A stretch of DNA of 64,000 nucleotides from Saprospira grandis str. Lewin (lineage in GTDB: Bacteria > Bacteroidota > Bacteroidia > Chitinophagales > Saprospiraceae): positions 1,096,995 to 1,160,994 of the forward strand of contig NC_016940.1 in NCBI RefSeq assembly GCF_000250635.1. Reading direction: 5' to 3'. Both the position numbers and the translations under genes were made by a program. Shown in pieces: positions 4,069 to 57,192 of this stretch; position 1 is the first letter of the stretch, and each line of letters opens with the position of its first letter. The notes under the pieces were generated by a model. That model worked only from the letters and a program-made list of their open reading frames with translations. It made no database searches and had not been told where the DNA came from.

Positions 4069-4102
4069 GGCCAAGGTTCATTAAAGGCCCGGAGGGCCTT
4101 TG

Positions 4103-4223
4103 GCCTAGCGATGTGCAGCAGTGCGGCGCAGCCGCAGACCAAGGCCGTCAGGCCGCAGGGCCGAGCGAATAGCGAGCTGCGAAACGTAGCGCCGACGAGC
4201 GAAGCGAGGCGGAGGCCCCAAAA
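4103..4223 (-). repeat. GC-rich modular intergenic repeat, copy 2 (reverse orientation)
   Basis: ggcctagcgatgtgcagcag...ggccgagcgaatagcgagctgcgaaacgtagcgccgacgagcgaagcgaggcggaggccccaaaa. The first ~95 bp are identical to the copy at 58762..58898. Confidence 0.85.
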
Positions 4224-4271
4224 CAAAAAAGCCCCTACTTCATCAGTAGAGGCTATATTATTTAGTAGAGT

Positions 4272-6074
4272 TTACTTGAGTTGGAAATCGCTAACGCGAT
4301 AGCCAGGGCGGAGGGGGGAGGTTTCGATATCGGCGAAACGTTTGTGGATAGCGAAGCAGCTACTGGGCACACAGAGGAAGAGGTAGGGTTGTTCTTCATG
4401 GATGATAGCCTGGGCGCGGAAATAGAGCTCCTTACGTTTTTGGGGATCGAGAGTAATGCGGATACTGTCGATAATGCGGTCACATTCTTCATTTCGGAAG
4501 CCGATGCGGTTGCTACCGCCATTTCGGTCTGAGGAAGAGTGCCAAGCCTGCTTAAGCTCGTCGAGATTGGGGCCTTGGGCCCAGGCCGAGCAGATCAGTT
4601 CAAACTCTCGGTTTTGGATATCCTTGACAAAGACGGGAAAATCGGCACTTTTGATTTTGATTTCGATACCGAGGGCTCGGGCTTCACCTTGGAGGAGCAG
4701 TCCAATATTTTTGCGGATATCGTTGCCTTGATTATACTTAAACTCTAGGCTTAGCTTTTCTAGTTTTCCGTTGATGCGTTTATCTAGAACTCCGTCATTA
4801 TCGGAATCGGTCCAGCCGGCTTCTGTCAAGAGTTCTTTAGCTCTTTCGGGGTCATAGCTAAAGGGTTTAATTTGGTCATTATAGTGTTCCTTTTGGGGGT
4901 TAATCGGGCCAACCGTTTCGGTGGCTAGGCCTTCAAAGAGGACATCAATAATTTCTTGGCGGTTAATGATATGGGAGAGCGCTTGGCGGAGCTTTTTATC
5001 CTTTAGCTTAGGGTTGCGCAGATTGATTCCGATATAATAGTAGCCAAAAACGGGGGGAGAAGAGAGTTCAAAAAGATTTTGGAACTCTTGATCTTCTTTT
5101 AGGGCCTTAAACTTGACGGGTTTGATATTGTGTAGGACATCAATTTCCTCATTTCGGGCCACGGTAATAGCGGTACTAGGGTCATTGACCACCTTATGAA
5201 TAATTTTTGTGGGATAGGCCACCAACATAGGGTTTTTGGCCTCATTGGCCCACCAATCTTCTTTGCGTTCTAGGATAATATGTTGGCCATTGCTCCATTC
5301 TACAAAGCGGTAAGGGCCAGATCCGACCACTGTTTCCTTACTAAACTTGGGGCTATTAAAATTTTGGGCAAATCGTTCAAGGTTTGCATTTTTGTTGGCG
5401 GCTTCATAATCCATCTGGTTGAGTTCGGCCAGACTCACTTTTTTCATTAGGCCTTCGGGGTCATAGACATACTCGGGCATAATGTGCATATCGCCAGCAG
5501 ATTCTTCGGCGATAAAATAGCGTTGTTTAGAGAAGATCGTAAACTCTCTTTCGTTATCGGGTGAAATATAGATCGAGTCGATAAACTCATAATAGGGGCG
5601 GCGGCTGCCCGATTCTACCAGAGGATTTTTGATTGCTTTGACGGTAAAGAGATAATCATAGGCCGTAACGGCTTGGCCATTATCCCATTTGGCTTCGGGT
5701 CGGATCTCGAACTTCAGCGACATACCGCCGGCATAGGGGCCCTCTTCTAGTTCTCTGACATCGGGCATTTTGAGGGCGAGTTGGGGCACCAATTTGAGAT
5801 CTTCTGGATGAAACTCCAACAAGCGAGAGAATATGTTGTTCTGAATATAAGTAGCGGCAGCCCCTTGAGAGGTTACAGGATTTAAGCCATCGGGATCATC
5901 TAGTTCCCAGACCGTTACCGAAGGATCCTTCATTTTGTTGCTACTTTGGCTTTCCTTTACTTCCTGAGCGGCTTCTCCGTCTGTTTGGGGAGAGGAAGGC
6001 TGGCAACTGCCAAAACATAAACTTAGTCCGAGCAGGCCTAAGATTGTTTTTTTTCTGATATTCATATTGGTCAT
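4272..6074 (-). CDS. ABC transporter substrate-binding lipoprotein, family 5 (peptide/nickel type)
   Basis: Lipoprotein signal MTNMNIRKKTILGLLGLSLCFGSC. The ~600 aa length and overall pattern fit SBP_bac_5 (oligopeptide-binding) proteins. Confidence 0.7.
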   Translation of the reverse strand: MTNMNIRKKTILGLLGLSLCFGSCQPSSPQTDGEAAQEVKESQSSNKMKDPSVTVWELDDPDGLNPVTSQGAAATYIQNNIFSRLLEFHPEDLKLVPQLALKMPDVRELEEGPYAGGMSLKFEIRPEAKWDNGQAVTAYDYLFTVKAIKNPLVESGSRRPYYEFIDSIYISPDNEREFTIFSKQRYFIAEESAGDMHIMPEYVYDPEGLMKKVSLAELNQMDYEAANKNANLERFAQNFNSPKFSKETVVGSGPYRFVEWSNGQHIILERKEDWWANEAKNPMLVAYPTKIIHKVVNDPSTAITVARNEEIDVLHNIKPVKFKALKEDQEFQNLFELSSPPVFGYYYIGINLRNPKLKDKKLRQALSHIINRQEIIDVLFEGLATETVGPINPQKEHYNDQIKPFSYDPERAKELLTEAGWTDSDNDGVLDKRINGKLEKLSLEFKYNQGNDIRKNIGLLLQGEARALGIEIKIKSADFPVFVKDIQNREFELICSAWAQGPNLDELKQAWHSSSDRNGGSNRIGFRNEECDRIIDSIRITLDPQKRKELYFRAQAIIHEEQPYLFLCVPSSCFAIHKRFADIETSPLRPGYRVSDFQLK

Positions 6075-6134: not shown

Positions 6135-7058
6135 ATGAGTAGAATTTTAATAACGGGAGGCAGCGGCCTCATTGGTCAAGAACTTTGTAAGCTCCTACAT
6201 CAGCAGGGCTTTGAGCCAATTTTGCTCAGTCGGAACCCGGCTAAAATCACGCAATGGACGGCCTTTGAGTGGGATTTGGATCGGGGCTGGGTGGATCCTC
6301 AGCTTTTTGATCAGCCGATTGACTACCTCATTCATTTGGCGGGGGCGGGCATTGCTGATGCGAGATGGAGCGATCAGCGAAAGGAATTGATCATTGACAG
6401 TCGGAGTCAGAGCCTGAAGATATTGGCCCAAGCCTTTAGGGAGGCGAGGCAAGAGCTCAAAGCCTTTATTTCGGCTTCGGCAGTAGGGATTTATGGAGAT
6501 CGGGGGAATGAGGTCTTATCGGAGGAGTCGGCCATTCATAAAGAGCGAAAAGACGACTTTTTGGTACAGAGTTGTATTGCTTGGGAAGATGCGGCCAAGG
6601 CATTTGAGGGATTAACGGCTCGGATCAGTCATCTTCGGATAGGCATTGTGCTTTCGACTCGGGGGGGGGCTTTGGCCAAAATGCTCCCTTCTTATCAGTT
6701 TCATTTGGGCGCTTATTTTGGCGATGGCGAGCAATACTACCCTTGGGTGCATATCAGCGATCTTTGTCGGATGTTCTTGTTCCTCATTCAGCGGGGGAAG
6801 GCTGGCGTTTATAATGGGGTGGGGCCCGATCCCGTACAAAATAAGACAATGGCGCATATTTTAGCTAAGGCAACTGGAAAAAAATCCTTGATTCTGCCTG
6901 CCCCTCGCTTTGCGCTGCGTTTGGCCATGGGGGAAATGGCCAATGTGGTCCTTTATTCGGCCAGGGTGCTTCCTAAGCGGCTAGAAGAAGAGGGCTTTAA
7001 GCATCGGTACCGAGATTTGCAAGCGGCCTTAGTAGACCTAATAGAAAACAAGCGGTAA
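6135..7058 (+). CDS. TIGR01777/YfcH-type epimerase-family protein (SDR39U1, NAD-binding Rossmann plus DUF1731 C-terminus)
   Basis: MSRILITGGSGLIGQELCKLL Rossmann start and ~307 aa length typical of YfcH. The start is moved to the ATG at 6135. Confidence 0.7.
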   Translation: MSRILITGGSGLIGQELCKLLHQQGFEPILLSRNPAKITQWTAFEWDLDRGWVDPQLFDQPIDYLIHLAGAGIADARWSDQRKELIIDSRSQSLKILAQAFREARQELKAFISASAVGIYGDRGNEVLSEESAIHKERKDDFLVQSCIAWEDAAKAFEGLTARISHLRIGIVLSTRGGALAKMLPSYQFHLGAYFGDGEQYYPWVHISDLCRMFLFLIQRGKAGVYNGVGPDPVQNKTMAHILAKATGKKSLILPAPRFALRLAMGEMANVVLYSARVLPKRLEEEGFKHRYRDLQAALVDLIENKR

Positions 7059-8706: not shown

Positions 8707-8832
8707 TTTTTTGGGGCCTCCGCCTCGCTTCGCTCGTCGGCGCTACGTTTCAGGGCTCGCAGGTCTGCTCGGCCCTTCAGCGCTTGCAGCGCCTCGGTCT
8801 GGCCTTCGGCCACCCTTGCACATCGCTAGGCC
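8707..8832 (+). repeat. GC-rich modular intergenic repeat, copy 3 (forward; the most canonical copy)
   Basis: tttttggggcctccgcctcgcttcgctcgtcggcgctacgtttcagggctcgcaggtctgctcggcccttcagcgcttgcagcgcctcggtctggccttcggccacccttgcacatcgctaggcc. Confidence 0.85.
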
Positions 8833-9647: not shown

Positions 9648-9694
9648 AAAAAATTGGCCCAGGGCGAGTCGGCCCTTTGGCCGAAGGCCAAACG

Positions 9695-9913
9695 GCCTAG
9701 CGATGTGCAGCAGTGGCCCGCAGGGCCAGACCGAGCCAGCTTGCTGGCGAAGGGCCGAGCGAACAGCGAGCTGCGAAACGTAGCGCCGACGAGCGAAGCG
9801 AGGCGGAGGCCCAAAAACAGCAGCGAGCTGCGAAACGACAACAAGCCCTTTAGGGCGCAGTTCGACGACCAAAGGGAGTAACCGCCTGCCGAAGACAGGA
9901 GGCCCCAAAAAAA
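9695..9913 (-). repeat. GC-rich modular intergenic repeat, copy 4 (reverse, long variant with the extra module)
   Basis: ggcctagcgatgtgcagcagtggcc...gagcgaagcgaggcggaggcccaaaaacagcagcgagctgcgaaacgacaacaagccctttagggcgcagttcgacgaccaaagggagtaaccgcctgccgaagacaggaggccccaaaaaaa. Confidence 0.85.
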
Positions 9914-12800: not shown

Positions 12801-12948
12801 TTTGGGGCTGCCCCGCCCTGCGGGCGGGTCGGGCTGTCTCAGGGCTCGCAGGTCTGCTCGGCCCTTCAGCGGCTTTGCCGCTTCGGTCTGGCCTTCGGCC
12901 ACCCTTGCCCATCCCTCAGCCAGGGCGCTTCGCGCCCTCTAGGTCCAA
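12800..12948 (+). repeat. GC-rich modular intergenic repeat, copy 5 (forward, head variant B: gggctgccccgccctgcgggcgggtcgggctgt...)
   Basis: tttggggctgccccgccctgcgggcgggtcgggctgtctcagggctcgcaggtctgctcggcccttcagcggctttgccgcttcggtctggccttcggccacccttgcccatccctcagccagggcgcttcgcgccct. Confidence 0.85.
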
Positions 12949-18069: not shown

Positions 18070-18200
18070 ATGAGCGGCCCAGCGCTGCGCAGCGGTGGCC
18101 GCAGGCCAGACCCAGCGGGCGAAGCCCGCGCAGGGCCGAGCAGACCTGCGAGCCGCGGAGCATAGCGGCGGCCAGCGAAGCTGGCCGCGGGCCCCAAAAC
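18070..18200 (-). repeat. GC-rich modular intergenic repeat, copy 7 (reverse)
   Basis: cggcccagcgctgcgcagcggtggccgcaggccagaccc...gggccgagcagacctgcgagccgcggagcatagcggcggccagcgaagctggccgcgggccccaaaa. Confidence 0.85.
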
Positions 18201-19210: not shown

Positions 19211-20215
19211 ATGCACACACATTATCACATTCGACTTTCACAGGATGGGCAACTTTGGGCAGAATTTTCATTGCCCGAGGAGGCGGAGGCTAGTCTTTTG
19301 CTCAACTCATTAGAAACGATCTTGGACCTTTATCGGGAAGAGGACATTCATTTTTTGTTTAATGAGCGAAAAATCACGGCGGGGCCTGCGCAAAGAGAGC
19401 AGGAGCAATCCATTTTAGAATTGAGTCTGGCAGAACTTTGGGGAGATTTGGATGAGGCCTTATTGGTTTTGAACGGGCAAATTTGGAAGCTCTACCTTTT
19501 GGACCGGGCCTTAGAAGGGCCTGCTGAGCCGCAGCTTTTGGAATTGGGGCCGCAACTGCAGGAAGTTTGGCAGGAGCCGGCTTCTTTATTGGAAGAATTG
19601 ACCAATATGTTGGAAATGGCGCCTTTGCCATTGGAGGAAGAGGAAGACGACAACCCTTATACTGTTCAGGAATTGGCTCTTTTTCAGACCCAGATGGAAT
19701 TTAAGAAAATCCAGTTTCGTCAGTACAAAGCCTTGGGAGAAAGAGCCATGCAGCAGCTGCCCGAGGCCGAGTTATTTCGGCAATTTTCTGCTGATCAAAA
19801 CAGCATAGCCATTATTGTGCAGCACCTTTGGGGCAACATGCGTTCTCGTTGGACCGACTTTTTGAACACGGATGGCGAGAAAGACTGGCGAAACAGAGAC
19901 AATGAATTTGAGCTATACCTCAAGGACCGCAAAGCGGTGATGGACTACTGGGAAGAGGGCTGGTTGTTTCTTTTCAATGCGCTAGACCAATTGGAGGCCA
20001 AAGACTGGGACCGCAATGTTTACATTCATGGTGAGGAGCATTATGTTTGGCAGGCGATAGATCGGCAACTGGCTCATTATAGTTATCATATTGGCCAGAT
20101 TGTACTTTTTGCTCGCATCTTTAAACAAGATCCTTGGGAAAGTCTTTCTATTCCCAGAGGCAAATCGGCGGAATACAACCAGATGATGCGAGAGGAAAAC
20201 GAAAGAGAAGACTAG
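19211..20215 (+). CDS. Hypothetical protein with a C-terminal DUF1572 (DinB/YfiT-like) domain and a unique ~160-aa acidic N-terminal extension
   Basis: C-terminal half (MEFKKIQFRQYKALGERAM...HLWGNMRSRW...HYSYHIGQIV...) resembles the ~165-aa DUF1572 family as recalled. The N-terminal half has no recognisable family. Confidence 0.5.
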   Translation: MHTHYHIRLSQDGQLWAEFSLPEEAEASLLLNSLETILDLYREEDIHFLFNERKITAGPAQREQEQSILELSLAELWGDLDEALLVLNGQIWKLYLLDRALEGPAEPQLLELGPQLQEVWQEPASLLEELTNMLEMAPLPLEEEEDDNPYTVQELALFQTQMEFKKIQFRQYKALGERAMQQLPEAELFRQFSADQNSIAIIVQHLWGNMRSRWTDFLNTDGEKDWRNRDNEFELYLKDRKAVMDYWEEGWLFLFNALDQLEAKDWDRNVYIHGEEHYVWQAIDRQLAHYSYHIGQIVLFARIFKQDPWESLSIPRGKSAEYNQMMREENERED

Positions 20216-20328
20216 CGTTTGGGCGGGCTTATTCTGAGGAAGAAAAGGCCCGCTTTGCTATGATTTTTTTTGAAAAAGCTGGATATTGAGCAGTTGTAAA
20301 TGAACCTAGGCTGGAGGTGGAGACTTGA

Positions 20329-20730
20329 GCCTATAATAGCGCAGATGAGGAAATTATTCTGCTGGATAAGGTAGCCAAGCAAAAACTATTAACGGATGAG
20401 GAAATTAAATCCTTAAAAGCCAAGAAACTAATCGAGGGAAGAAAGCCCAACTTTCATATTTCCTCAGAAGTAGCTAAAGCATCGGGAGATAAAGCAAGGT
20501 ATATAAAGCAAAGAGGGATTGACGATAAGTTTTATGAACAGTTAATTATTCAATATTTGAATAAATTTCAAGTAGCTAGTAGCGCTGACCTTAAAAAACT
20601 ACTACTCGATAAATTACCTGAAATTTTAGCTCCCAAACAGAAAGAAAATAAAATCAGAAATATGTTGCAAAAGATGAAGCGCAACTCACTAATTAAGCTA
20701 AATGAAAACCGAGAATGGCAACTCGTTTAA
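20329..20730 (+). pseudogene. Remnant (C-terminal ~130 codons) of a RecG-like 'ATP-binding protein / putative transcriptional regulator' gene, with the N-terminal part deleted
   Basis: The frame is open from the stop at 20326 but has no start codon. The translation ...LIEGRKPNFHISSEVAKASGDKARYIKQRGIDDKFYEQLIIQYLNKFQVASSADLKKLLLDKLPEILAPKQKENKIRNMLQKMKRNSLIKLNENREWQLV* matches the conserved C-terminal HTH tail of that family as recalled. Confidence 0.55.
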
Positions 20731-20817
20731 TTTAAACGGGATTTAAACGGGATTTAAACGGGATTTAAACGGGATTTAAACGGGATTTAAACGGGATTTA
20801 AACGGGATTTAAACGGG
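20731..20817. repeat. Tandem repeat, 11-bp unit (atttaaacggg) x ~8
   Basis: tttaaacggg followed by (atttaaacggg)x7, directly visible. It begins at the stop codon of the truncated gene. Confidence 0.9.
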
Positions 20818-20934
20818 AAATTAATGCAAAGTACTGGAAATCAAAAACATAAGTCTCGTTTAATTTGGTTTAAAAAAATTTAATTTAATCGAATTAGCTA
20901 TTTTTAAATGATAGAAATTTAAGCCTCAGGAATC

Positions 20935-20946
20935 GACTAATTAGTC
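20935..20946. promoter_or_regulatory. Perfect 12-bp palindrome gactaattagtc in an AT-rich upstream region (candidate operator)
   Basis: Self-complementary dodecamer followed by the half-site-like aactaat, ~120 bp upstream of the 21066 gene. Confidence 0.3.
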
Positions 20947-21065
20947 AACTAATCAAAACATTTTTACACAAAGCGCTGTATTTTACTAGAAAATTAGGGT
21001 ATAATCATCCAATATTTTCATATATAGGCAAAGCAAAAATCAGAACCACCAAATATCAATGATAA

Positions 21066-21872
21066 ATGTCTACTAAAAAGAAACTACATATTCCCATCTT
21101 GGCCGATATGGCTGCTGCGGGCCAAGAGCCCGAGGTCCTTTTTTGGGTAGGTTGCGCAGGCAGCTTTGACGATAGAGCCAAAAAAGTAACTGTGGCCTTT
21201 AGCAAGCTGCTTTCGGCGGCGGGGGTAGAATTTGCCATTTTGGGCAAAGAAGAAAGTTGTACTGGAGACCCTGCTCGCCGAGCTGGAAACGAGTTCATCT
21301 TTCAGATGCAAGCCATGCAAAACATCGAAACGCTCAAGATGTATAATGTGAAGAAGATCGTGACGACTTGTCCGCACTGCTTCAATATTCTAAAAAATGA
21401 GTATCCTGTTTTGGGTCTAGAAGGGGTTGAGGTATTGCATCACACCCAGCTCATTCAAAGTCTATTGGCGGAGGGTAAATTGACTGTAGAAGGCGGTAGC
21501 TTTGCAGGCAAGACCCTGACTTACCATGACTCTTGCTACTTAGGTCGAGCCAATGATATTTATGAAGCGCCTAGAGCTATTTTGGAGAAAATTGATGGCC
21601 AATTGACTGAAATGCAGCGTTCTCGCTCTAAGGGACTTTGCTGCGGAGCGGGTGGAGCCCAGATGTTTAAGGAAAATGAGCCTGGTGACAAGCGAATTAA
21701 TATGGAGCGGGCTGAGGAAGTCATTGCTACAGGGGCCGACTATGTTACGGCCAACTGTCCTTTCTGCATTACTATGCTTCAGGATGGACTCAAAGCAGAA
21801 AATGACAAGCGCCAAAGTCCTATTATGGTCCTTGACCTTTCTGAAATGATTGTAGAAGCCAATAAACTGTAA
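21066..21872 (+). CDS. (Fe-S)-binding protein with two cysteine-rich CCG domains (LutA/GlpC/YkgE-like)
   Basis: Two CCG-type Cys clusters (WVGCAGSFDDRAKKVTVAF...CTGDPARRAGNE...TCPHCFNIL and CYLGRAND...LCCGAGGAQMFKENEPGDKR...NCPFCITML). ~268 aa. Confidence 0.7.
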   Translation: MSTKKKLHIPILADMAAAGQEPEVLFWVGCAGSFDDRAKKVTVAFSKLLSAAGVEFAILGKEESCTGDPARRAGNEFIFQMQAMQNIETLKMYNVKKIVTTCPHCFNILKNEYPVLGLEGVEVLHHTQLIQSLLAEGKLTVEGGSFAGKTLTYHDSCYLGRANDIYEAPRAILEKIDGQLTEMQRSRSKGLCCGAGGAQMFKENEPGDKRINMERAEEVIATGADYVTANCPFCITMLQDGLKAENDKRQSPIMVLDLSEMIVEANKL

Positions 21873-25012: not shown

Positions 25013-25172
25013 ATTTTGGGGCTGCCCCGCCCTGCGGGCGGGTCGGGCTGTGTCAGGGCTCGCAGGTCTGCTCGGCCCTTCGCAAAAAAGCTGCGCTTTT
25101 TTGCTCGGTCTGGCCCTGCGGGCCACCCTTATCCATCCCTCAGCCGAGGGCCAGCCGCCAAGCGCTTTAGCC
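25013..25172 (+). repeat. GC-rich modular intergenic repeat, copy 8 (forward, head variant B)
   Basis: ttttggggctgccccgccctgcgggcgggtcgggctgtgtcagggctcgcaggtctgctcggcccttcgcaaaaaagctgcgcttttttgctcggtctggccctgcgggccacccttatccatccctcagcc... Confidence 0.85.
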
Positions 25173-25234: not shown

Positions 25235-25359
25235 GGCCTAGCGATGTGCAGCAGTGGCCGTCAGGCCAGACCGAGCCGCTGAAAGCGGCGAAGGGCCGAG
25301 CGAACAGCGAGCTGCGAAACGTAGCGCCGCAAGGCGAAGCCGCAGCGGAGGCCCCAAAA
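25235..25359 (-). repeat. GC-rich modular intergenic repeat, copy 9 (reverse); forms an inverted pair with copy 8
   Basis: ggcctagcgatgtgcagcagtggccgtcaggccagaccgagccgctgaaagcggcgaagggccgagcgaacagcgagctgcgaaacgtagcgccgcaaggcgaagccgcagcggaggccccaaaa. Confidence 0.85.
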
Positions 25360-25363
25360 CATC

Positions 25364-28072
25364 CTAATCCTCCTGAGAAGAAGACAACAAACTGTTTTGC
25401 GCTTGTCGCTCTTGGCCAAAAGTCAGAATCTGCCGAATAAAATCGAAGGGCTGATAACCATTGATGGCCGTTTGGTGGAAGATGCAGGTGGCGGGCGTCA
25501 TGCCGGGCAAAGAATTGACCTCAATGACCAGGGTTTCGGCTCGGCCATCGGCATAAATGCGGACAAAAGCATCGATTCGGGCATAGCCCGTAACCCCCAA
25601 AATGCGGGCCGCCTGCTCTAAATCGGCCTTAATTTGGGCCGCCAAGGGCGCATATTCAAGTTCGCCAACAGCCAAGCGAGCAGGGGTAATATTTTGTCCC
25701 TCTCCCGCCAAAAACTTCTCTTCCAACGATAAAATCTCGCCAGAAGCCAAGGTTTCAGAAGGCTCAAAAACCTCATAGCGGATGCTTCCATCGGCCTCAT
25801 GATGACAAAGTAGGCCCACGGTCACCTCCAGAAAATGCAGGGCATCTTTTTGCTCCACCAACTGCTCTAAAAGGGCATATTGCTTTTGGGGAAACTCCTC
25901 TTTGGGCAAAATGGCTAGGCGCTCTTGGGCAATTTTTGGCAAAATATCCTCTTCACGGAAAAGGGCCGCCAAAAAGGCCTCCAATTCCGCCTCATTTTTG
26001 ATCTTTTTCACGGCAGAGCTACAGCCATCATCTACTGGCTTGGCAATCAGGGGCCAGCCTAGTTTTTCGCCTGCTTGCTGCAGACTTTGTTCAGGCTGGG
26101 CCAAATAATCGCTTTTGCTCAAAAGGATTTGCTCGGTCACGGGCAGGCCAGCGGCTTTCAGCTTTTGGAGACTTTGGTACTTATCAATCGTCAAGGCAGC
26201 AGAATCGGCCTCCGAACCATTAAAAGCGATGCCTCTTTTGGCCAACTCTCTTTGGAGCGCGCCATCCTCGCCGGGGCGGCCATGCAAAGCGATAAAGGCC
26301 AGACGGGTCTCCTCGCTTAATTCATCAAAAGAGAGCGAGCGGGGATCTAGGCGGCTACTTCGGCCAGAAAACTGATTAGCAATATGAGCCGTTTCTTGGC
26401 GAATCTTTTGGATAATGGGATGTACCTTATAATTTAATAATTTATCGCGAATATCGTCGGCATTATCCTTTAGCAAAAGGTTGATTGGTAATTCGTAGAG
26501 CTGTTGGTCCTCCGCCTTGCCCGTCAGGAAAACGGGAAAAGGCAGATAATCTGCAGAGCTGGCCAACTTCTCATAAATATTGCGGCCACTTTCTACCGAA
26601 ATATGGCGTTCGGAAGAATAACCGCCTAGAATAACCGCCACCTTTTGGAGTTCGGCAACCTCTCCTTCTAGGCGTTGCATCTCGCTTTCCAATCGGGCCA
26701 ATAATTGGCCATAATTATTGGGGCGCAGGCATTTTCGGCTGCGGGCCAAAAGCGAGCGATGAATAATAAAACTGAGAAAATGCGAGGGATTGAGGCCAAT
26801 TTCGGCCGCTTGATGGAAAAAGAAAGAAGAAGGCAGCATGCCCGAAGTCGTATTCGGATCATTGAGAATAATGCGGCCATCGGCTTGAATAAAACCATCG
26901 ATTCGGGCATAAACATCAAACTCCAAAAAGCGGAACAGCCGTTCGCACTCTTGGCGGATCGCTTGGATTTGGGCCTCGGGCAAATCAATAGGGGTTAACT
27001 TACGCGAGAGTCCAGCCAAATACTTAGAGCGATAATCAAAAAGCTCTTTGCCCTTGATAATTTCGGTGGGGGGCAAAGCAATGGCTTGGCCATCCTCATC
27101 TTGAATCACGACACAGGAAAACTCTCGGCCCTCAATAAAGCCCTCTAATAAAACGCTTTCCTCTCGGTATTGGCTTTGGAGTCGGAGCTTGGGGCTATGT
27201 CCCTGCCCCAATTCCTTATCGAGTAGGGCCAATAATTGCTCGGGATGATAGAGCAACTGTTTATCTTTTTTTGGGCCTTCCACCTCTAGCGGGAAGCCGA
27301 GGCCAGAGCGAATATCGAGCAATTTCCGCATCCATTGGATCTGCTCCTCTCGGCTCATTTGCTGCCAGTCTTCGGCGCTAATTTCGAGGCCAAAAAAGGC
27401 ATTTTCTAGGGCATCGAGAAGGTCTTCAGCCTGCTCGACAATACGCACACCGATAGAAGAACCTTGATTGGAAGGGCGGACCACCAAGGGGAAACCCATC
27501 TCTTTTTTGAGCTGCTCCAGATTGGGCAATTCGCCGCTCCAGTCTTTGGCCCAAATTTGTTGGATGGGAGGACTTTCAAAGCCGCCTGCCTGCATCATTT
27601 TCTTCTGGAAACTTTTGTCCATGCCCAGGCTACTCGCTCGGATGCCAGAGCCACTATAGGGAATCCCCAAAGCTTCTAACATCCCTTGAAGTTGACCATC
27701 TTCGCCCCATTCGCCATGCAGACTCAGAAAAGCAAAATCGATCAATTCGGGCAATTCGCTAAAGCTAATTGGGCGGCCAATTTGGGCCAGCAACTCCTTA
27801 GAGGCCTGCTTAGAAAGGCCTAGGCTTTCCACATAAATCTGAAAATGGTGTGGGCTAGGCGGCAGTGCCTCTACTGGGGGATAAAAATCTCGGATACTGC
27901 CCTTATAGAGATACTCCCAATCGAGTAGGCAGAGTTGGCCAAAACTATCCACAAAAATAGGGATGGGCCGAAAAAGTTGTTTATTTAAATTATCGTAGAC
28001 GGTCCGGCCACCTGCAAAGGCGATTTCGCGTTCTCGAGAGGGGCCAGCCAGAAATATTCCAATGTTCAACAT
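25364..28072 (-). CDS. Tandem double D-alanine--D-alanine ligase-like (ATP-grasp) protein, 902 aa
   Basis: Two complete Ddl-like modules. Module 1: MLNIGIFLAGPSREREIAFAGGRTVYDNL..., FLSLHGEWGEDGQLQGMLEALGIPYSGSG, FPLVVRPSNQGSSIGV, EFSCVVIQDEDGQAIALPPTEI, DYRSKYL. Module 2: VAVILGGYSSERHISVESGRNIYEKL, IALHGRPGEDGALQRELAKRGIAFNGSEADSAALTIDKYQ, WPLIAKPVDDGCSSAV, EVNSLPGMTPATCIFHQ. Confidence 0.7.
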   Translation of the reverse strand: MLNIGIFLAGPSREREIAFAGGRTVYDNLNKQLFRPIPIFVDSFGQLCLLDWEYLYKGSIRDFYPPVEALPPSPHHFQIYVESLGLSKQASKELLAQIGRPISFSELPELIDFAFLSLHGEWGEDGQLQGMLEALGIPYSGSGIRASSLGMDKSFQKKMMQAGGFESPPIQQIWAKDWSGELPNLEQLKKEMGFPLVVRPSNQGSSIGVRIVEQAEDLLDALENAFFGLEISAEDWQQMSREEQIQWMRKLLDIRSGLGFPLEVEGPKKDKQLLYHPEQLLALLDKELGQGHSPKLRLQSQYREESVLLEGFIEGREFSCVVIQDEDGQAIALPPTEIIKGKELFDYRSKYLAGLSRKLTPIDLPEAQIQAIRQECERLFRFLEFDVYARIDGFIQADGRIILNDPNTTSGMLPSSFFFHQAAEIGLNPSHFLSFIIHRSLLARSRKCLRPNNYGQLLARLESEMQRLEGEVAELQKVAVILGGYSSERHISVESGRNIYEKLASSADYLPFPVFLTGKAEDQQLYELPINLLLKDNADDIRDKLLNYKVHPIIQKIRQETAHIANQFSGRSSRLDPRSLSFDELSEETRLAFIALHGRPGEDGALQRELAKRGIAFNGSEADSAALTIDKYQSLQKLKAAGLPVTEQILLSKSDYLAQPEQSLQQAGEKLGWPLIAKPVDDGCSSAVKKIKNEAELEAFLAALFREEDILPKIAQERLAILPKEEFPQKQYALLEQLVEQKDALHFLEVTVGLLCHHEADGSIRYEVFEPSETLASGEILSLEEKFLAGEGQNITPARLAVGELEYAPLAAQIKADLEQAARILGVTGYARIDAFVRIYADGRAETLVIEVNSLPGMTPATCIFHQTAINGYQPFDFIRQILTFGQERQAQNSLLSSSQED

Positions 28073-32595: not shown

Positions 32596-32700
32596 TAACG
32601 GTGGCTGCAACATAAACCCTACAGCAAAAATGGTCCTGCGCTGCAAGGCGGTATAAATTGAGGGCCGAAGAAAATGGCCAAAAGAGAAAAAGACCGTTGA

Positions 32701-32827
32701 GCGGCTTAGCGCTGCGGAGCGGGTGGCCGCAGGCCAGACCAAGGCGGCTTGCCGCCGCAGGGCCGAGCAGACTTGCGAGCCCCGCAGCATAGCGCCCCGC
32801 CGCCTGCGGCGGCGGGGAAGCCCCAAA
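32701..32827 (-). repeat. GC-rich modular intergenic repeat, copy 11 (reverse); forms an inverted pair with copy 10
   Basis: gcggcttagcgctgcggagcgggtggccgcaggccagaccaaggcggcttgccgccgcagggccgagcagacttgcgagccccgcagcatagcgccccgccgcctgcggcggcggggaagccccaaa. Confidence 0.85.
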
Positions 32828-36855: not shown

Positions 36856-37011
36856 CCCTCCCCCAGGCCCTATTGGCCCAGCGCTGCGGAGGGGTGGCCG
36901 AAGGCCAGACCAAAGCCGCCAAAGGCGGCTGCAGGGCCGAGCAGACCTGCGAGCCCCGCAGCATAGCGGCGGCCGAGCGAGGCGAAGCCGAGCCGGCCGC
37001 GGGCCCCAAAA
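36856..37011 (-). repeat. GC-rich modular intergenic repeat, copy 12 (reverse)
   Basis: cccagcgctgcggaggggtggccgaaggccagaccaaagccgccaaaggcggctgcagggccgagcagacctgcgagccccgcagcatagcggcggccgagcgaggcgaagccgagccggccgcgggccccaaaa. Confidence 0.85.
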
Positions 37012-39210: not shown

Positions 39211-39370
39211 TTTTGGGGCCTCAGCTGCGCTGCGCTTGCTGCGCTACGTTTCGGGGCTCGCAGGCTTGCTCGGCCCTTCAGTGCTGCGCACTTCGGTCTG
39301 GCCTGACGGCCACCCCTACACATCGCTAGGCCATCTGGCCTGACGGCCAAGGCGGCTGCGCCGCCTATCC
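39211..39370 (+). repeat. GC-rich modular intergenic repeat, copy 13 (forward, with a 3' extension)
   Basis: ttttggggcctcagctgcgctgcgcttgctgcgctacgtttcggggctcgcaggcttgctcggcccttcagtgctgcgcacttcggtctggcctgacggccacccctacacatcgctaggcc + atctggcctgacggccaaggcggctgcgccgcc. Confidence 0.85.
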
Positions 39371-44221: not shown

Positions 44222-44402
44222 GATAGGCGGCGAAGCCGCCTGCGAGCGAAGCGAGCCATGGCCCAGCGCTGCGCAGCCGTGGCCCGAAGGGCCAGACCCA
44301 GTTTTTTGAGCGCAGCGAAAAAAACGCAGGGCCGAGCAGACCTGCGAGCGGCGCAGCATAGCGGCGGCCGCCCCAAATTGAAGGGCGGCCGCGGGCCCCA
44401 AA
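44222..44402 (-). repeat. GC-rich modular intergenic repeat, copy 16 (reverse, long)
   Basis: gataggcggcgaagccgcctgcgagcgaagcgagccatggcccagcgctgcgcagccgtggcccgaagggccagacccag...gggccgagcagacctgcgagcggcgcagcatagcggcggccgccccaaattgaagggcggccgcgggccccaaagc. Confidence 0.85.
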
Positions 44403-49757: not shown

Positions 49758-49783
49758 TCGAGGCCTGAAGGGCCTCTTTTTTG
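49758..49783 (+). terminator. Rho-independent terminator after recO
   Basis: gaggcc-tgaa-ggcctc stem followed by T6. Confidence 0.6.
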
Positions 49784-49900
49784 GCCTAGCGATGCGGCGG
49801 GGTGGCCGTCAGGCCAGACCAAGGAGCCGCAGGCGACGAAGGGCCGAGCAAGCCTGCGAGCCCCAAAGCGTAGCGCCCGCCGAAGGCGGGAGGCCCCAAA
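49783..49900 (-). repeat. GC-rich modular intergenic repeat, copy 18 (reverse)
   Basis: ggcctagcgatgcggcggggtggccgtcaggccagaccaaggagccgcaggcgacgaagggccgagcaagcctgcgagccccaaagcgtagcgcccgccgaaggcgggaggccccaaaa. Confidence 0.85.
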
Positions 49901-49904
49901 ACAG

Positions 49905-56931: not shown

Positions 56932-57192
56932 TTTTGGGGCCTCCCGCCTGCGGCGGGCGGTTACTCCCTTTGGTCGTCGAACTGCGAACTAAAGTTCTTG
57001 TTGTCGTTTATTCTCTTTGGTCATCGAACTGGCGCCCCTATAGGGGCTTGTTGTCGCAGCTCGCTGCTATTTTGGGGCCTCCGCCTCCCTTCGGTCGTCG
57101 GCGCTACGTTCCGCAGCTCGCTATTCGCTCGGCCCTTCGCCAGCTTCGCTGGCTCGGTCTGGCCTACGGCCACTGCTGCACATCGCTAGGCC
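56932..57192 (+). repeat. GC-rich modular intergenic repeat, copy 19 (forward; composite of two heads plus the extra module)
   Basis: ttttggggcctcccgcctgcggcgggcggttactccctttggtcgtcgaactgcgaactaaagttcttgttgtcg...ggtcatcgaactggcgcccctataggggcttgttgtcgcagctcgctgctattttggggcctccgcctcccttcggtcgtcggcgctacgttccgcagctcgctattcgctcggccc...ctgctgcacatcgctaggcc. Confidence 0.85.

Follow-up and report, generated by a model that had tools for sequence, protein, structure and literature searches.

A tandem repeat array anchored at the stop codon of a deleted Schlafen-family gene in Saprospira grandis, a candidate cis element of its gene family

We describe a tandem array of 11-bp repeats that begins at the stop codon of a gene remnant in Saprospira grandis str. 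Lewin, together with the gene family to which the remnant belongs. The array lies in a non-coding interval of 850 bp (20216-21065) of the window, by which we mean the whole stretch of 64,000 nucleotides that was analysed. The remnant is almost certainly what is left of a deleted prokaryotic Schlafen (pSlfn) gene, and arrays of similar layout are found at the stop codons of homologous genes in many phyla; the array is very probably a cis element of the family as a whole. As for its role, we tentatively take the repeat units to be a candidate DNA binding site of the winged helix that the same gene encodes.

The family concerned is the pSlfn HisKinase-HTH class (PF04326 + PF13749 + winged helix-turn-helix, wHTH), which accounts for 19.2% of a set of 5,930 prokaryotic Schlafens (bioRxiv 10.1101/2025.07.24.666596). 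Its members also carry the older labels COG2865, 'ATP-dependent DNA helicase RecG-like' and 'ATP-binding / RNA-binding domain-containing protein'. Recent work treats the class as candidate abortive-infection effectors tied to restriction and bacteriophage exclusion (BREX) loci. Anti-phage action via tRNA cleavage has been demonstrated for other pSlfn architectures only (bioRxiv 10.1101/2025.07.24.666596), and an anti-phage role of the HisKinase-HTH architecture is assumed here from homology and from the neighbourhood of restriction genes.

Taken by itself, the feature in the window is ordinary: a dead defence gene and a slippage-prone repeat at a polymorphic locus. The stop-codon array as a family-wide trait is a new variant of repeat-operator arrangements, and it offers a handle on an uncharacterised Schlafen class. 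Prokaryotic Schlafens have been recognised as anti-phage effectors only recently, and the HisKinase-HTH pSlfns have no known ligand, regulator or winged-helix role; if the docking role proposed below is true, the array would give prokaryotic Schlafens their first known cis element. In addition, the array can serve annotators as a DNA signature, and it explains both the excess of TAG stops and the variable C-terminal tails in the family. Note that short-read assemblies break at these arrays. No description of the array was found in the literature searched on this family and on 11-bp repeats, and neither of the two pSlfn papers compared (bioRxiv 10.1101/2025.07.24.666596 among them) speaks of a repeat array in the DNA at the gene's 3' end.

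The gene remnant and its repeat array

The features of the window that bear directly on the remnant and the array are as follows.

20329..20730, + strand: pseudogene fragment of 133 codons and a stop, encoding the two C-terminal winged helices of a Schlafen (AlbA_2)-HATPase_c_4-wHTH protein (translation, HMMER, AlphaFold2 (AF2) model)
20330..20348, no strand: deletion junction, about 19 bp of unmatched filler in place of 1334 bp (blastn and junction alignment)
20724..20738, no strand: perfect 15-bp palindrome CGTTTAA-T-TTAAACG centred on the TAA stop (read from the sequence)
20730..20818, + strand: tandem array (ATTTAAACGGG) x 8.1, period 11, units 100% identical (Tandem Repeats Finder, TRF)
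20850..20863, - strand: single inverted copy of the unit, reverse complement TTAAACGAGACTTA, near the family unit TTTAAACGAGA and 86% complementary to the array units

The interval containing these features lies between a DUF1572/DinB_2 gene (19211-20215) and a gene for an Fe-S protein with a CCG domain (21066-21872). The initial annotation had reported a non-coding stretch with a gene fragment, a repeat, an AT-rich segment and a palindrome, and all of these are present where it placed them. The frame of the fragment is open from 20329 to 20727 and ends with TAA at 20728-20730. Upstream of it lie two in-frame TGA codons (20287-20289 and 20326-20328), and the earliest start codon is a TTG at 20557; the 57-codon open reading frame (ORF) that begins there lacks the first helix of the winged-helix domain and has no visible promoter. 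Because there is no start before 20557, TGA codons stand in frame and the leader has been deleted (see below), the window copy is a pseudogene remnant and not a member gene.

Pfam and NCBIfam gave no meaningful match when searched with the 133-aa fragment alone. An exhaustive HMMER search of the fragment against 1.8 billion representative proteins, by contrast, gave 429 matches at E<=1e-10, and the full-length proteins among them are 540-580 aa long and are aligned at residues ~425-550 with E-values of 1e-28 to 1e-20. A word-indexed search, in which all matches were <=233 aa, had suggested a family of small proteins; this candidate was rejected when the exhaustive search returned the 540-580-aa relatives. 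The best homologous locus is that of S. grandis DSM 2844 (L009), whose DNA flanks are 92-94% identical to the window and which carries an intact 542-aa gene between the same two flanking genes; the gene is also intact in CP110854.1 (L090). The proposal that the fragment comes from the RecG-like ATP-binding family is thus borne out by the intact gene at the same locus in both strains.

The DSM 2844 protein has the architecture of the HisKinase-HTH class: SLFN_AlbA_2 at residues 14-130 (1.9e-16), HATPase_c_4 at residues 318-393 (8.9e-10) and C-terminal winged helices. It carries the sequence ENEVVEFK, which fits the Schlafen catalytic motif Ex4ExK (bioRxiv 10.1101/2025.07.24.666596). A sequence search of the PDB with the intact protein gave no match, and PADLOC gave a weak domain-level match to Argonaute-associated proteins.

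Comparison with this locus defines the deletion. The fragment is 98% identical to residues 421-546 of the frame translated from L009 2741, which correspond to residues 417-542 of the 542-aa protein. When L009 is aligned with the window by blastn, L009 2666-3999 is missing; these 1334 bp comprise the 5' leader with the promoter and ~416 codons. The N-terminal loss proposed by the initial annotation is therefore real, but its size of ~350 aa was too small, since full-length relatives of 540-580 aa align at ~425-550. A tblastn search with the full intact protein matches the window at residues 421-546 of the translated frame only and finds no other homologue in the 64 kb. The window copy thus differs from other members of the class in retaining the winged-helix C-terminus only: the Schlafen/AlbA_2 nuclease domain and the HATPase_c_4 (GHKL) domain are absent, and no expressible intact ORF is retained. 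The identical junction is present in L001-L004, L089, L092, L093 and L099. In its coding part the remnant differs from DSM 2844 at 9/378 positions (97.6% identity; six synonymous and three non-synonymous differences), and the excess of this value over the 92-94% of the flanks weakly suggests exchange of the module between lineages.

The AF2 model of the fragment (predicted local distance difference test, pLDDT, 85) has two winged-helix units, residues 2-45 and 66-132, which place wHTH1 at ~20332-20463 and wHTH2 at ~20524-20724. In Foldseek the second winged helix resembles DtxR/IdeR, ZBP1 Z-alpha and FtsK-gamma with probabilities of 0.97-1.0. Both programs point to a C-terminal winged helix with a basic third helix.

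Two 'proteins' of 156-158 aa, P0001 and P0002 from contigs L001-L004, read through both upstream TGA codons as Trp, and we rejected them as evidence of a longer product. TGA is present in the DNA of every strain, and the contig DNA does not translate to P0001/P0002; they are probably a gene-calling artefact in which a code-4 model was misapplied to short low-GC contigs.

Orphan C-terminal fragments of the family (126-230 aa) are also present in other Bacteroidota (L005 6001-6600, L006 6001-6760, L007 6001-6580), with further cases in L013, L016, L021, L025, L041, L069 and L086, often amid housekeeping genes. Because such fragments recur, loss of the N-terminal part of this Schlafen gene appears to be recurrent. 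Most of the fragments retain copies of the repeat motif; none was seen in L013 or L025. In Aquiflexum lacus (L006), the fragment and a TTTAGAC cluster lie between direct repeats of ~190 bp (5680-5870 and 6770-6960), which are the start of a duplicated gene for a small secreted protein, and the locus is part of a defence island with type I restriction-modification (R-M), AAA_21/RloB, Fic and AbiEii genes.

The repeat that follows the S. grandis fragment had been described as eight units placed exactly at the stop codon, and TRF places its 8.1 copies there. The motif TTTAAACGRG occurs 8 times in the 64 kb against 0.34 expected, always in the array, and 0/100 shuffles reach 8. The 15-bp palindrome over the stop codon is made up of an inverted unit, encoded by the last codons (L-V-stop), and the first unit of the array. 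The same arrangement is found in L005, L010 and L011, and in L012 it is altered yet still palindromic (GGTTTAATTTAAACC). The separate inverted copy at 20850-20863 is kept in L009, L090, L092 and L093.

The number of units differs between strains. Intact alleles have 6 units in DSM 2844 and 8 in CP110854.1, and truncated alleles with the same deletion junction have 8 in the window, 2 in L092 and 4 in L093 (one of which is a GAG variant). The suggestion that the repeat is prone to slippage, which called for a comparison of copy number across strains, thus gains support: slippage is the likely cause of the differences, and the eight identical units together with the series 2, 4, 6, 8, 8 are consistent with ongoing or recent replication slippage. 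The strain alleles were collected as contigs with an identical CCG protein. The short-read contigs L001, L002, L095 and L099 end inside the array, and metagenomes searched for exact copies of the S. grandis junction of stop codon and array gave 0 matches.

Arrays at stop codons across the gene family

The array is a trait of the gene family. We scanned 80 homologous loci from many phyla, using as controls the ends of other or neighbouring ORFs in the same loci. Three or more identical 6-mers, in phase at 9-13 bp, are found between stop-23 and +70 in 53/78 family loci, as compared with 3/336 control ORF ends; two or more copies of TTA[GA]A[CT] are present in 65/78 loci versus 9/337 controls; and a tandem-array score >=10 between stop-30 and +100 is reached in 51/77 loci versus 12/335 other ORF ends. 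Phyla with arrays include Bacteroidota, Pseudomonadota (several classes), Desulfobacterota, Nitrospirota and Campylobacterota.

The period of the arrays is more uniform than their sequence. It is 11 in 35/45 of the best arrays and 10 in 7/45, and two loci have 22-bp units. The unit types include TTTAGACGAGA, TTTAGACATTT(T), TTTAAACGAGA, TTTAGATAAAC, TTTAGTCAAAC, TTTAGTAATAC, TTAGCCCAGAC and TTTAGCCGTAT, in which a conserved heptamer and about four variable bases are arranged head-to-tail every 10-12 bp. Copy number changes quickly between close relatives, for example ~13 versus 3 (L015/L021) and 3 versus 2 (L014/L016). No similarity is found past the array across genera, and the AT-rich tail is not conserved.

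The array is anchored to the end of the reading frame. It often begins in the last codons, giving repeat-encoded tails such as W-I-L-D-E-I-stop or W-I-L-D-G-F-R-R-D-L-D-G-I-stop. The stop codon is TAG in 46/79 family loci versus 59/261 neighbouring genes (p=1e-8), and in 29/79 it lies inside a unit. Because the period is 11 nt, TAG appears in all three frames within three units, so that termination is assured at any copy number. The motif is concentrated in the 0-200 bp past the stop, frequently in two clusters, of which the second lies 60-130 bp beyond the first. Upstream of the family gene, at the gene's own promoter, there is no enrichment, and autoregulation through that promoter is thus not supported.

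A search of metagenomes that started from the motif led back to the family: 18/105 arrays of three TTTAGAC-N4 units directly follow a family C-terminus. Shorter paralogues with other C-termini (L104, L105, L108) have no phased arrays. Two of the shorter paralogues (472-490 aa, again with a different C-terminus) have downstream pairs of ~18-bp direct repeats of their own, 60-120 bp apart, AAAGTGTTTTAACGCAAA x2 and TTGATCGGGTTTTGATTG x2; these are L106 2910-3020 (Picosynechococcus PCC 7002 pAQ3) and L107 2931-3110 (a Pseudosulfitobacter plasmid), and both belong to type I R-M/methyltransferase operons. It is therefore possible that COG2865 proteins more widely have a cognate repeat past their stop codons.

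Family genes often lie beside restriction genes. The next co-oriented gene encodes a DEAD/ResIII helicase of ~650 aa in 17 loci, an HsdR protein of ~1000 aa in 16 and HsdM in 3. The spacers to this gene are as short as 38-68 nt, which implies an operon and co-transcription. On Rhodobacterales plasmids, for example, the order is methyltransferase, family gene and DEAD helicase, with a spacer of 61 bp that contains CTA[AC]GAAAG three times.

One subfamily has a palindrome, TGA(W)(W)ATCA / TTGATTATCAA, in the interval that separates the proximal array from the distal motif; 15 matches were counted in the +0..200 region versus ~6 expected. The loci concerned are L009 (~4464-4472) and L014, L016, L018, L022, L023, L040, L044 and L084, in which it lies 20-100 bp past the array, and it is degenerate in the window (CTGGAAATCA, 20836-20845). 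A second operator is one possible role for it, a promoter element another.

We also considered whether phage-borne TTTAGAC arrays serve as triggers or decoys. This was rejected: 55 viral contigs carry such arrays, none of them beside a family gene, and permuted heptamers gave 20, 17 and 39 matches, which makes the phage arrays background. As a separate observation, 22 IMG/VR contigs (L110, L113, L116, L119, L134, L143, L144, L149, L151, L155, L162, L163 and relatives) share an intergenic block that consists of a terminator hairpin followed by TTTAGACATTT x3, ATCCCGTTTTATCCCGCC and AAGACCTGATAATC. This block has no connection with the Schlafen family and could represent an origin or an operator of a phage.

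Strain alleles of the inserted module

In S. grandis, the gene, the array and the AT-rich tail form a module whose presence varies between strains. Its parts, and the other features of the interval, are listed below.

20307..20311, no strand: left TAGGC, a 5-bp direct repeat flanking the module (alignment with the empty-site alleles L091 and L098)
20312..21029, + strand: module remnant, 718 bp, of a ~2.0-kb single-gene insertion, including the right TAGGC at 21025-21029 (empty-site alignment)
20527..20957, + strand: allelic cassette of the second winged helix, the array and most of the AT-rich tail (three-way alignment)
20959..21024, + strand: conserved 66-bp module end, common to both cassette types and absent from the empty site (alignments)
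20221..20275, + strand: terminator-like hairpin (GCGGGCTT...AAGGCCCGC) with a T-run, after the DUF1572/DinB_2 gene (read from the sequence)
20935..20946, no strand: 12-bp palindrome GACTAATTAGTC, in window-type alleles only

The module contains the Schlafen-GHKL-wHTH gene, the repeat array and the AT-rich tail. At the empty site, seen in L091, L094 and L098, 140 bp separate the DUF1572 stop from the CCG start and TAGGC occurs once, while two copies flank the occupied site. The pair of TAGGC could equally be a target-site duplication or microhomology used in a deletion, and no terminal inverted repeats were seen at the module ends. The module ends 207 bp after the array, and no restriction gene follows it in S. 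grandis.

A further truncated allele is found in L003, L004 and L089, in which the cassette is replaced by a version of ~50% aa identity with (TTTAGACGAG)x4 and an unrelated tail. In the AF2 model, the left breakpoint of the cassette falls just before the first helix of wHTH2. The module is thus polymorphic in the S. grandis population, with intact, truncated, cassette-swapped and empty alleles, and the synteny comparison that the initial annotation proposed finds a site that is not conserved as it stands. The same annotation saw here the scar of a deleted island. This does not hold, in that the insertion is a single gene of ~2 kb and the loss is an internal deletion of 1334 bp in that one gene.

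The 66-bp module end is identical in both cassette types and contains TATAAT. Because the insertion parts the CCG gene from its original upstream region, this end may supply the CCG promoter in module-bearing strains. A sigma-70 promoter scan, which does not cover Bacteroidota promoters, made no call there.

The G+C content is 26-30% at ~20400-21050, as compared with ~47% around it, and 26% in segment 20819-21065. The 12-bp palindrome of the AT-rich segment had been singled out in the initial annotation. It is real, but it is not significant, because a perfect 12-bp palindrome arises in 807/5000 shuffles (16%) of that segment; the window has 33 such palindromes, and this one gives no sign of function. 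The hairpin at 20221-20275 is kept in module-bearing relatives and belongs to the native chromosome outside the inserted module. Its stem and T-run suggest a terminator; the consensus terminator scan made no call at it, the loop being >8 nt. Rfam gave no match at E<=1 within 19900-21300, and, among the ORFs of the window and in a tRNA search, no recombinase, transposase or integrase ORF was found in or near the module and no tRNA near it.

Elsewhere in the window, a dispersed intergenic repeat of ~125 bp, REP-like (repetitive extragenic palindromic) or MITE-like (miniature inverted-repeat transposable element), is present in at least 14 copies of 71-83% identity: ~18075-18200 (G+C ~0.66), 756-836, 4102-4224, 8709-8832, 9693-9818, 12844-12902, 25058-25126, 25235-25368, 32686-32794, 36875-37011, 39211-39332, 44260-44402, 49783-49902 and 57070-57192. 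It creates spurious ORFs, e.g. '...GLRPPLRSAGP...'.

Possible roles of the array

The explanation that we consider the best overall, with confidence a little above even, joins the gene remnant and the family-wide array to a role in DNA binding, a part to which we give slightly less than even odds. The units would be head-to-tail binding sites of the protein's own second, C-terminal winged helix, all facing the same side of the double helix. Once bound, the protein would be docked or oligomerised at its gene's 3' end, before the co-oriented restriction helicase or HsdR gene, and docking might, speculatively, gate read-through into or expression of the restriction gene, or keep the RNase inactive. 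In the window the binding protein would have been lost and the array would expand and contract by replication slippage. Because the cognate binding protein has been destroyed, the array here is best seen as a non-functional relic.

Several observations support DNA binding. The period stays close to one turn of the helix even where unit sequences are unrelated, and two loci use 22 bp instead. The third helix of the winged helix changes together with the core of the unit in three subfamilies: 'NK[IV][KR]N.LQ.[LM][KR]' with TTTA[G/A]AC, 'NK[VI]RN[IL][IV]YAMS' with TTTAG[AT]NAA(A)C, and 'NKIGNLLSGLR' with CTA[AC]GAAAG. The allelic swap in S. grandis exchanges wHTH2 together with the array. Inverted copies of units, which suit a DNA site, occur at 20724-20738, at 20850-20863 and as ATGTCTAAA inside the 'WKMSK' coding sequence.

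Other observations weigh against this explanation. The covariation of helix 3 and unit amounts to about three clade-level events and is confounded by descent and linkage, and the Foldseek E-values of the winged helix are weak (0.05-0.3). An array downstream of the gene is unusual for an autoregulator, and in some loci a spacer of 38-68 nt is too short to hold a separate promoter, which means that the array cannot everywhere be a classical operator. The motif is strongly biased in strand (246 forward versus 9 reverse in the 0-200 bp), which would also fit an element acting in RNA. In the 'WKMSK'/TTTAGACAT subfamily, an RNA hairpin and U-run over the stop (z ~-3.6) could be a terminator. Finally, 83% of the TTTAGAC-phased metagenome arrays are not beside the family, and among viral contigs it is common to find 11-bp arrays built from arbitrary 7-mers.

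A more specific proposal, which we rate as doubtful, is that the stop-anchored 10-12-bp arrays are a cognate docking site that tethers or oligomerises the Schlafen-GHKL-wHTH RNase at a restriction, helicase or BREX operon. If so, protein and array would form specificity cassettes that are exchanged between strains, and changes of copy number would tune the system.

The strand bias and the co-transcription implied by the short spacers are what one would expect if the array acted as RNA, either as a decoy or antidote of the RNase in the 3' untranslated region or spacer, or as an element for cleavage or translational coupling of the restriction gene. The gene does encode a Schlafen-type RNase, the array lies on the coding strand directly past the stop, and the RNA of the window array (z -4.6), like that of the TTTAGACAT subfamily, folds better than shuffles. 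However, the TTTAGACGAG-type, TTAGCCCAGAC and TTTAGTCAAAC arrays are no better structured than shuffles (z -0.9 to +1.9), and RNA structure is thus not general: it is confined to the TTTAGACAT subfamily and the self-complementary TTTAAA units. An RNA role would also leave unexplained the units of 10-12 nt with a near-helical-turn period across unrelated sequences and the 22-bp units of two loci; inverted DNA copies exist; and the array co-varies and swaps with the winged helix, not with the RNase domain. We consider an RNA role improbable, and an RNA antidote of the RNase less likely than DNA docking. The nearest precedents are the type III toxin-antitoxin (TA) systems ToxIN, CptIN and TenpIN, in which repeats of ~36-45 nt forming pseudoknots lie upstream of the toxin gene with a terminator between. 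The present arrays resemble them in that a short tandem repeat is linked, on one strand, to the gene of an RNase connected with abortive infection, but they lie downstream and have units of 10-12 nt instead of ~36 nt, most types give no signal of RNA structure, and the toxin fold is unrelated. The array could also have no specific ligand and consist of phased A/T tracts that curve the DNA, bind nucleoid proteins or aid termination before the restriction operon. An A/T block does alternate with a G/C-richer block at ~10.5-bp phasing, the TTTAGACATTTTT units have T-runs and form a hairpin and U-run with the inverted coding copy, and the module is AT-rich and foreign-looking. Loose A-tracts, though, would not conserve the heptamer TTTA[G/A]AC across phyla, the discrete cores of the subfamilies track the third helix of the protein, and units such as TTAGCCCAGAC and TTTAGCCGTAT are not A-tract-like; the chance that this is the whole explanation is small. 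We give as little weight to a neutral origin, in which a slippage-prone microsatellite came into being a single time near the stop and has been carried along by the gene, with no function of its own. Free variation of copy number, also among pseudogene alleles (2, 4, 8), the arrays that persist beside truncated orphan fragments in several genomes and the abundance of arbitrary arrays in viral contigs would suit it. A microsatellite, however, would be expected to decay or vanish on such a time scale, while the array is kept in place in 68-92% of loci across phyla, its core and period are kept at ~50% protein identity, and a second motif cluster often lies further downstream.

The remaining alternatives concern the neighbourhood of the S. 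grandis locus. The initial annotation placed here a contingency locus upstream of the (Fe-S)-binding gene, i.e., a tract whose phase variation tunes the CCG gene, set in the scar left by an island's deletion. The tract is indeed polymorphic in length and lies upstream of CCG on the same strand. Against this, it ends 247 bp before the CCG start, and the intervening module tail is conserved whatever the copy number; strains with the empty site have the identical CCG protein without any tract; the tract goes with the upstream gene family in 78 loci, the downstream genes being unrelated; and the missing DNA is one gene, not an island. In addition, copy changes keep the helical phase, because the unit is 11 bp. 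This interpretation is hardly credible. Contingency loci are known in Haemophilus, Neisseria and Campylobacter, and in Vibrio cholerae TTTTGAT heptads bound by ToxR lie upstream of ctxAB. The window shares with them a perfect short tandem repeat that differs in copy number between strains, and the ToxR heptads are likewise winged-helix sites of variable number; here, unlike in those loci, the tract lies outside the reading frame and outside the promoter hexamers and their spacer, the unit keeps phase and the associated gene is dead. It is also very unlikely that a mobile element ends or attaches at the repeats, i.e., that they are recombinase or transposase sites and the fragment an integration junction. 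The 5-bp direct repeat and the empty sites in the population would fit such an element, as would the orphan C-terminal fragments with arrays amid housekeeping genes elsewhere and the ~190-bp direct repeats around the L006 fragment. But no terminal inverted repeats were seen, no recombinase, transposase or tRNA was found in or near the module, the array is internal and lies 207 bp from the right end, the breakpoints of the allelic swap are not at the array, and in most loci the array is inside an operon.

As for DNA binding by the winged helix, the closest models are operators made of direct repeats. PhoB binds Pho boxes, in which a 7-bp repeat and a 4-bp spacer give a period of 11 bp; SARP/AfsR sites (SARP, Streptomyces antibiotic regulatory protein) and the 11-bp direct repeats of CarH are further examples. 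The family arrays are similar in that a heptamer and ~4 bases recur head-to-tail every 10-12 bp and a winged helix is encoded alongside, i.e., repeats of one turn stand beside a winged helix, the binding of the protein itself being predicted. They are unlike Pho boxes in lying past the gene's own stop and not in a target promoter, and in having a variable number of units, up to 13; the protein has no receiver domain and no kinship with OmpR/PhoB, and the likeness concerns the mode of action only. In plasmid R1, parC contains ten 11-bp direct repeats that are bound by ParR in a helical nucleoprotein complex, and the iterons of plasmid initiators, e.g. the 11-bp repeats of pMV158 RepB, are comparable. 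In these systems, too, long 11-bp arrays adjoin the gene of the binding protein, and cassettes of protein and repeat differ between alleles. The differences from parC/ParR are that no partition ATPase or replicon accompanies the array, that ParR is a ribbon-helix-helix protein, and that the partner here has an RNase and a GHKL domain.

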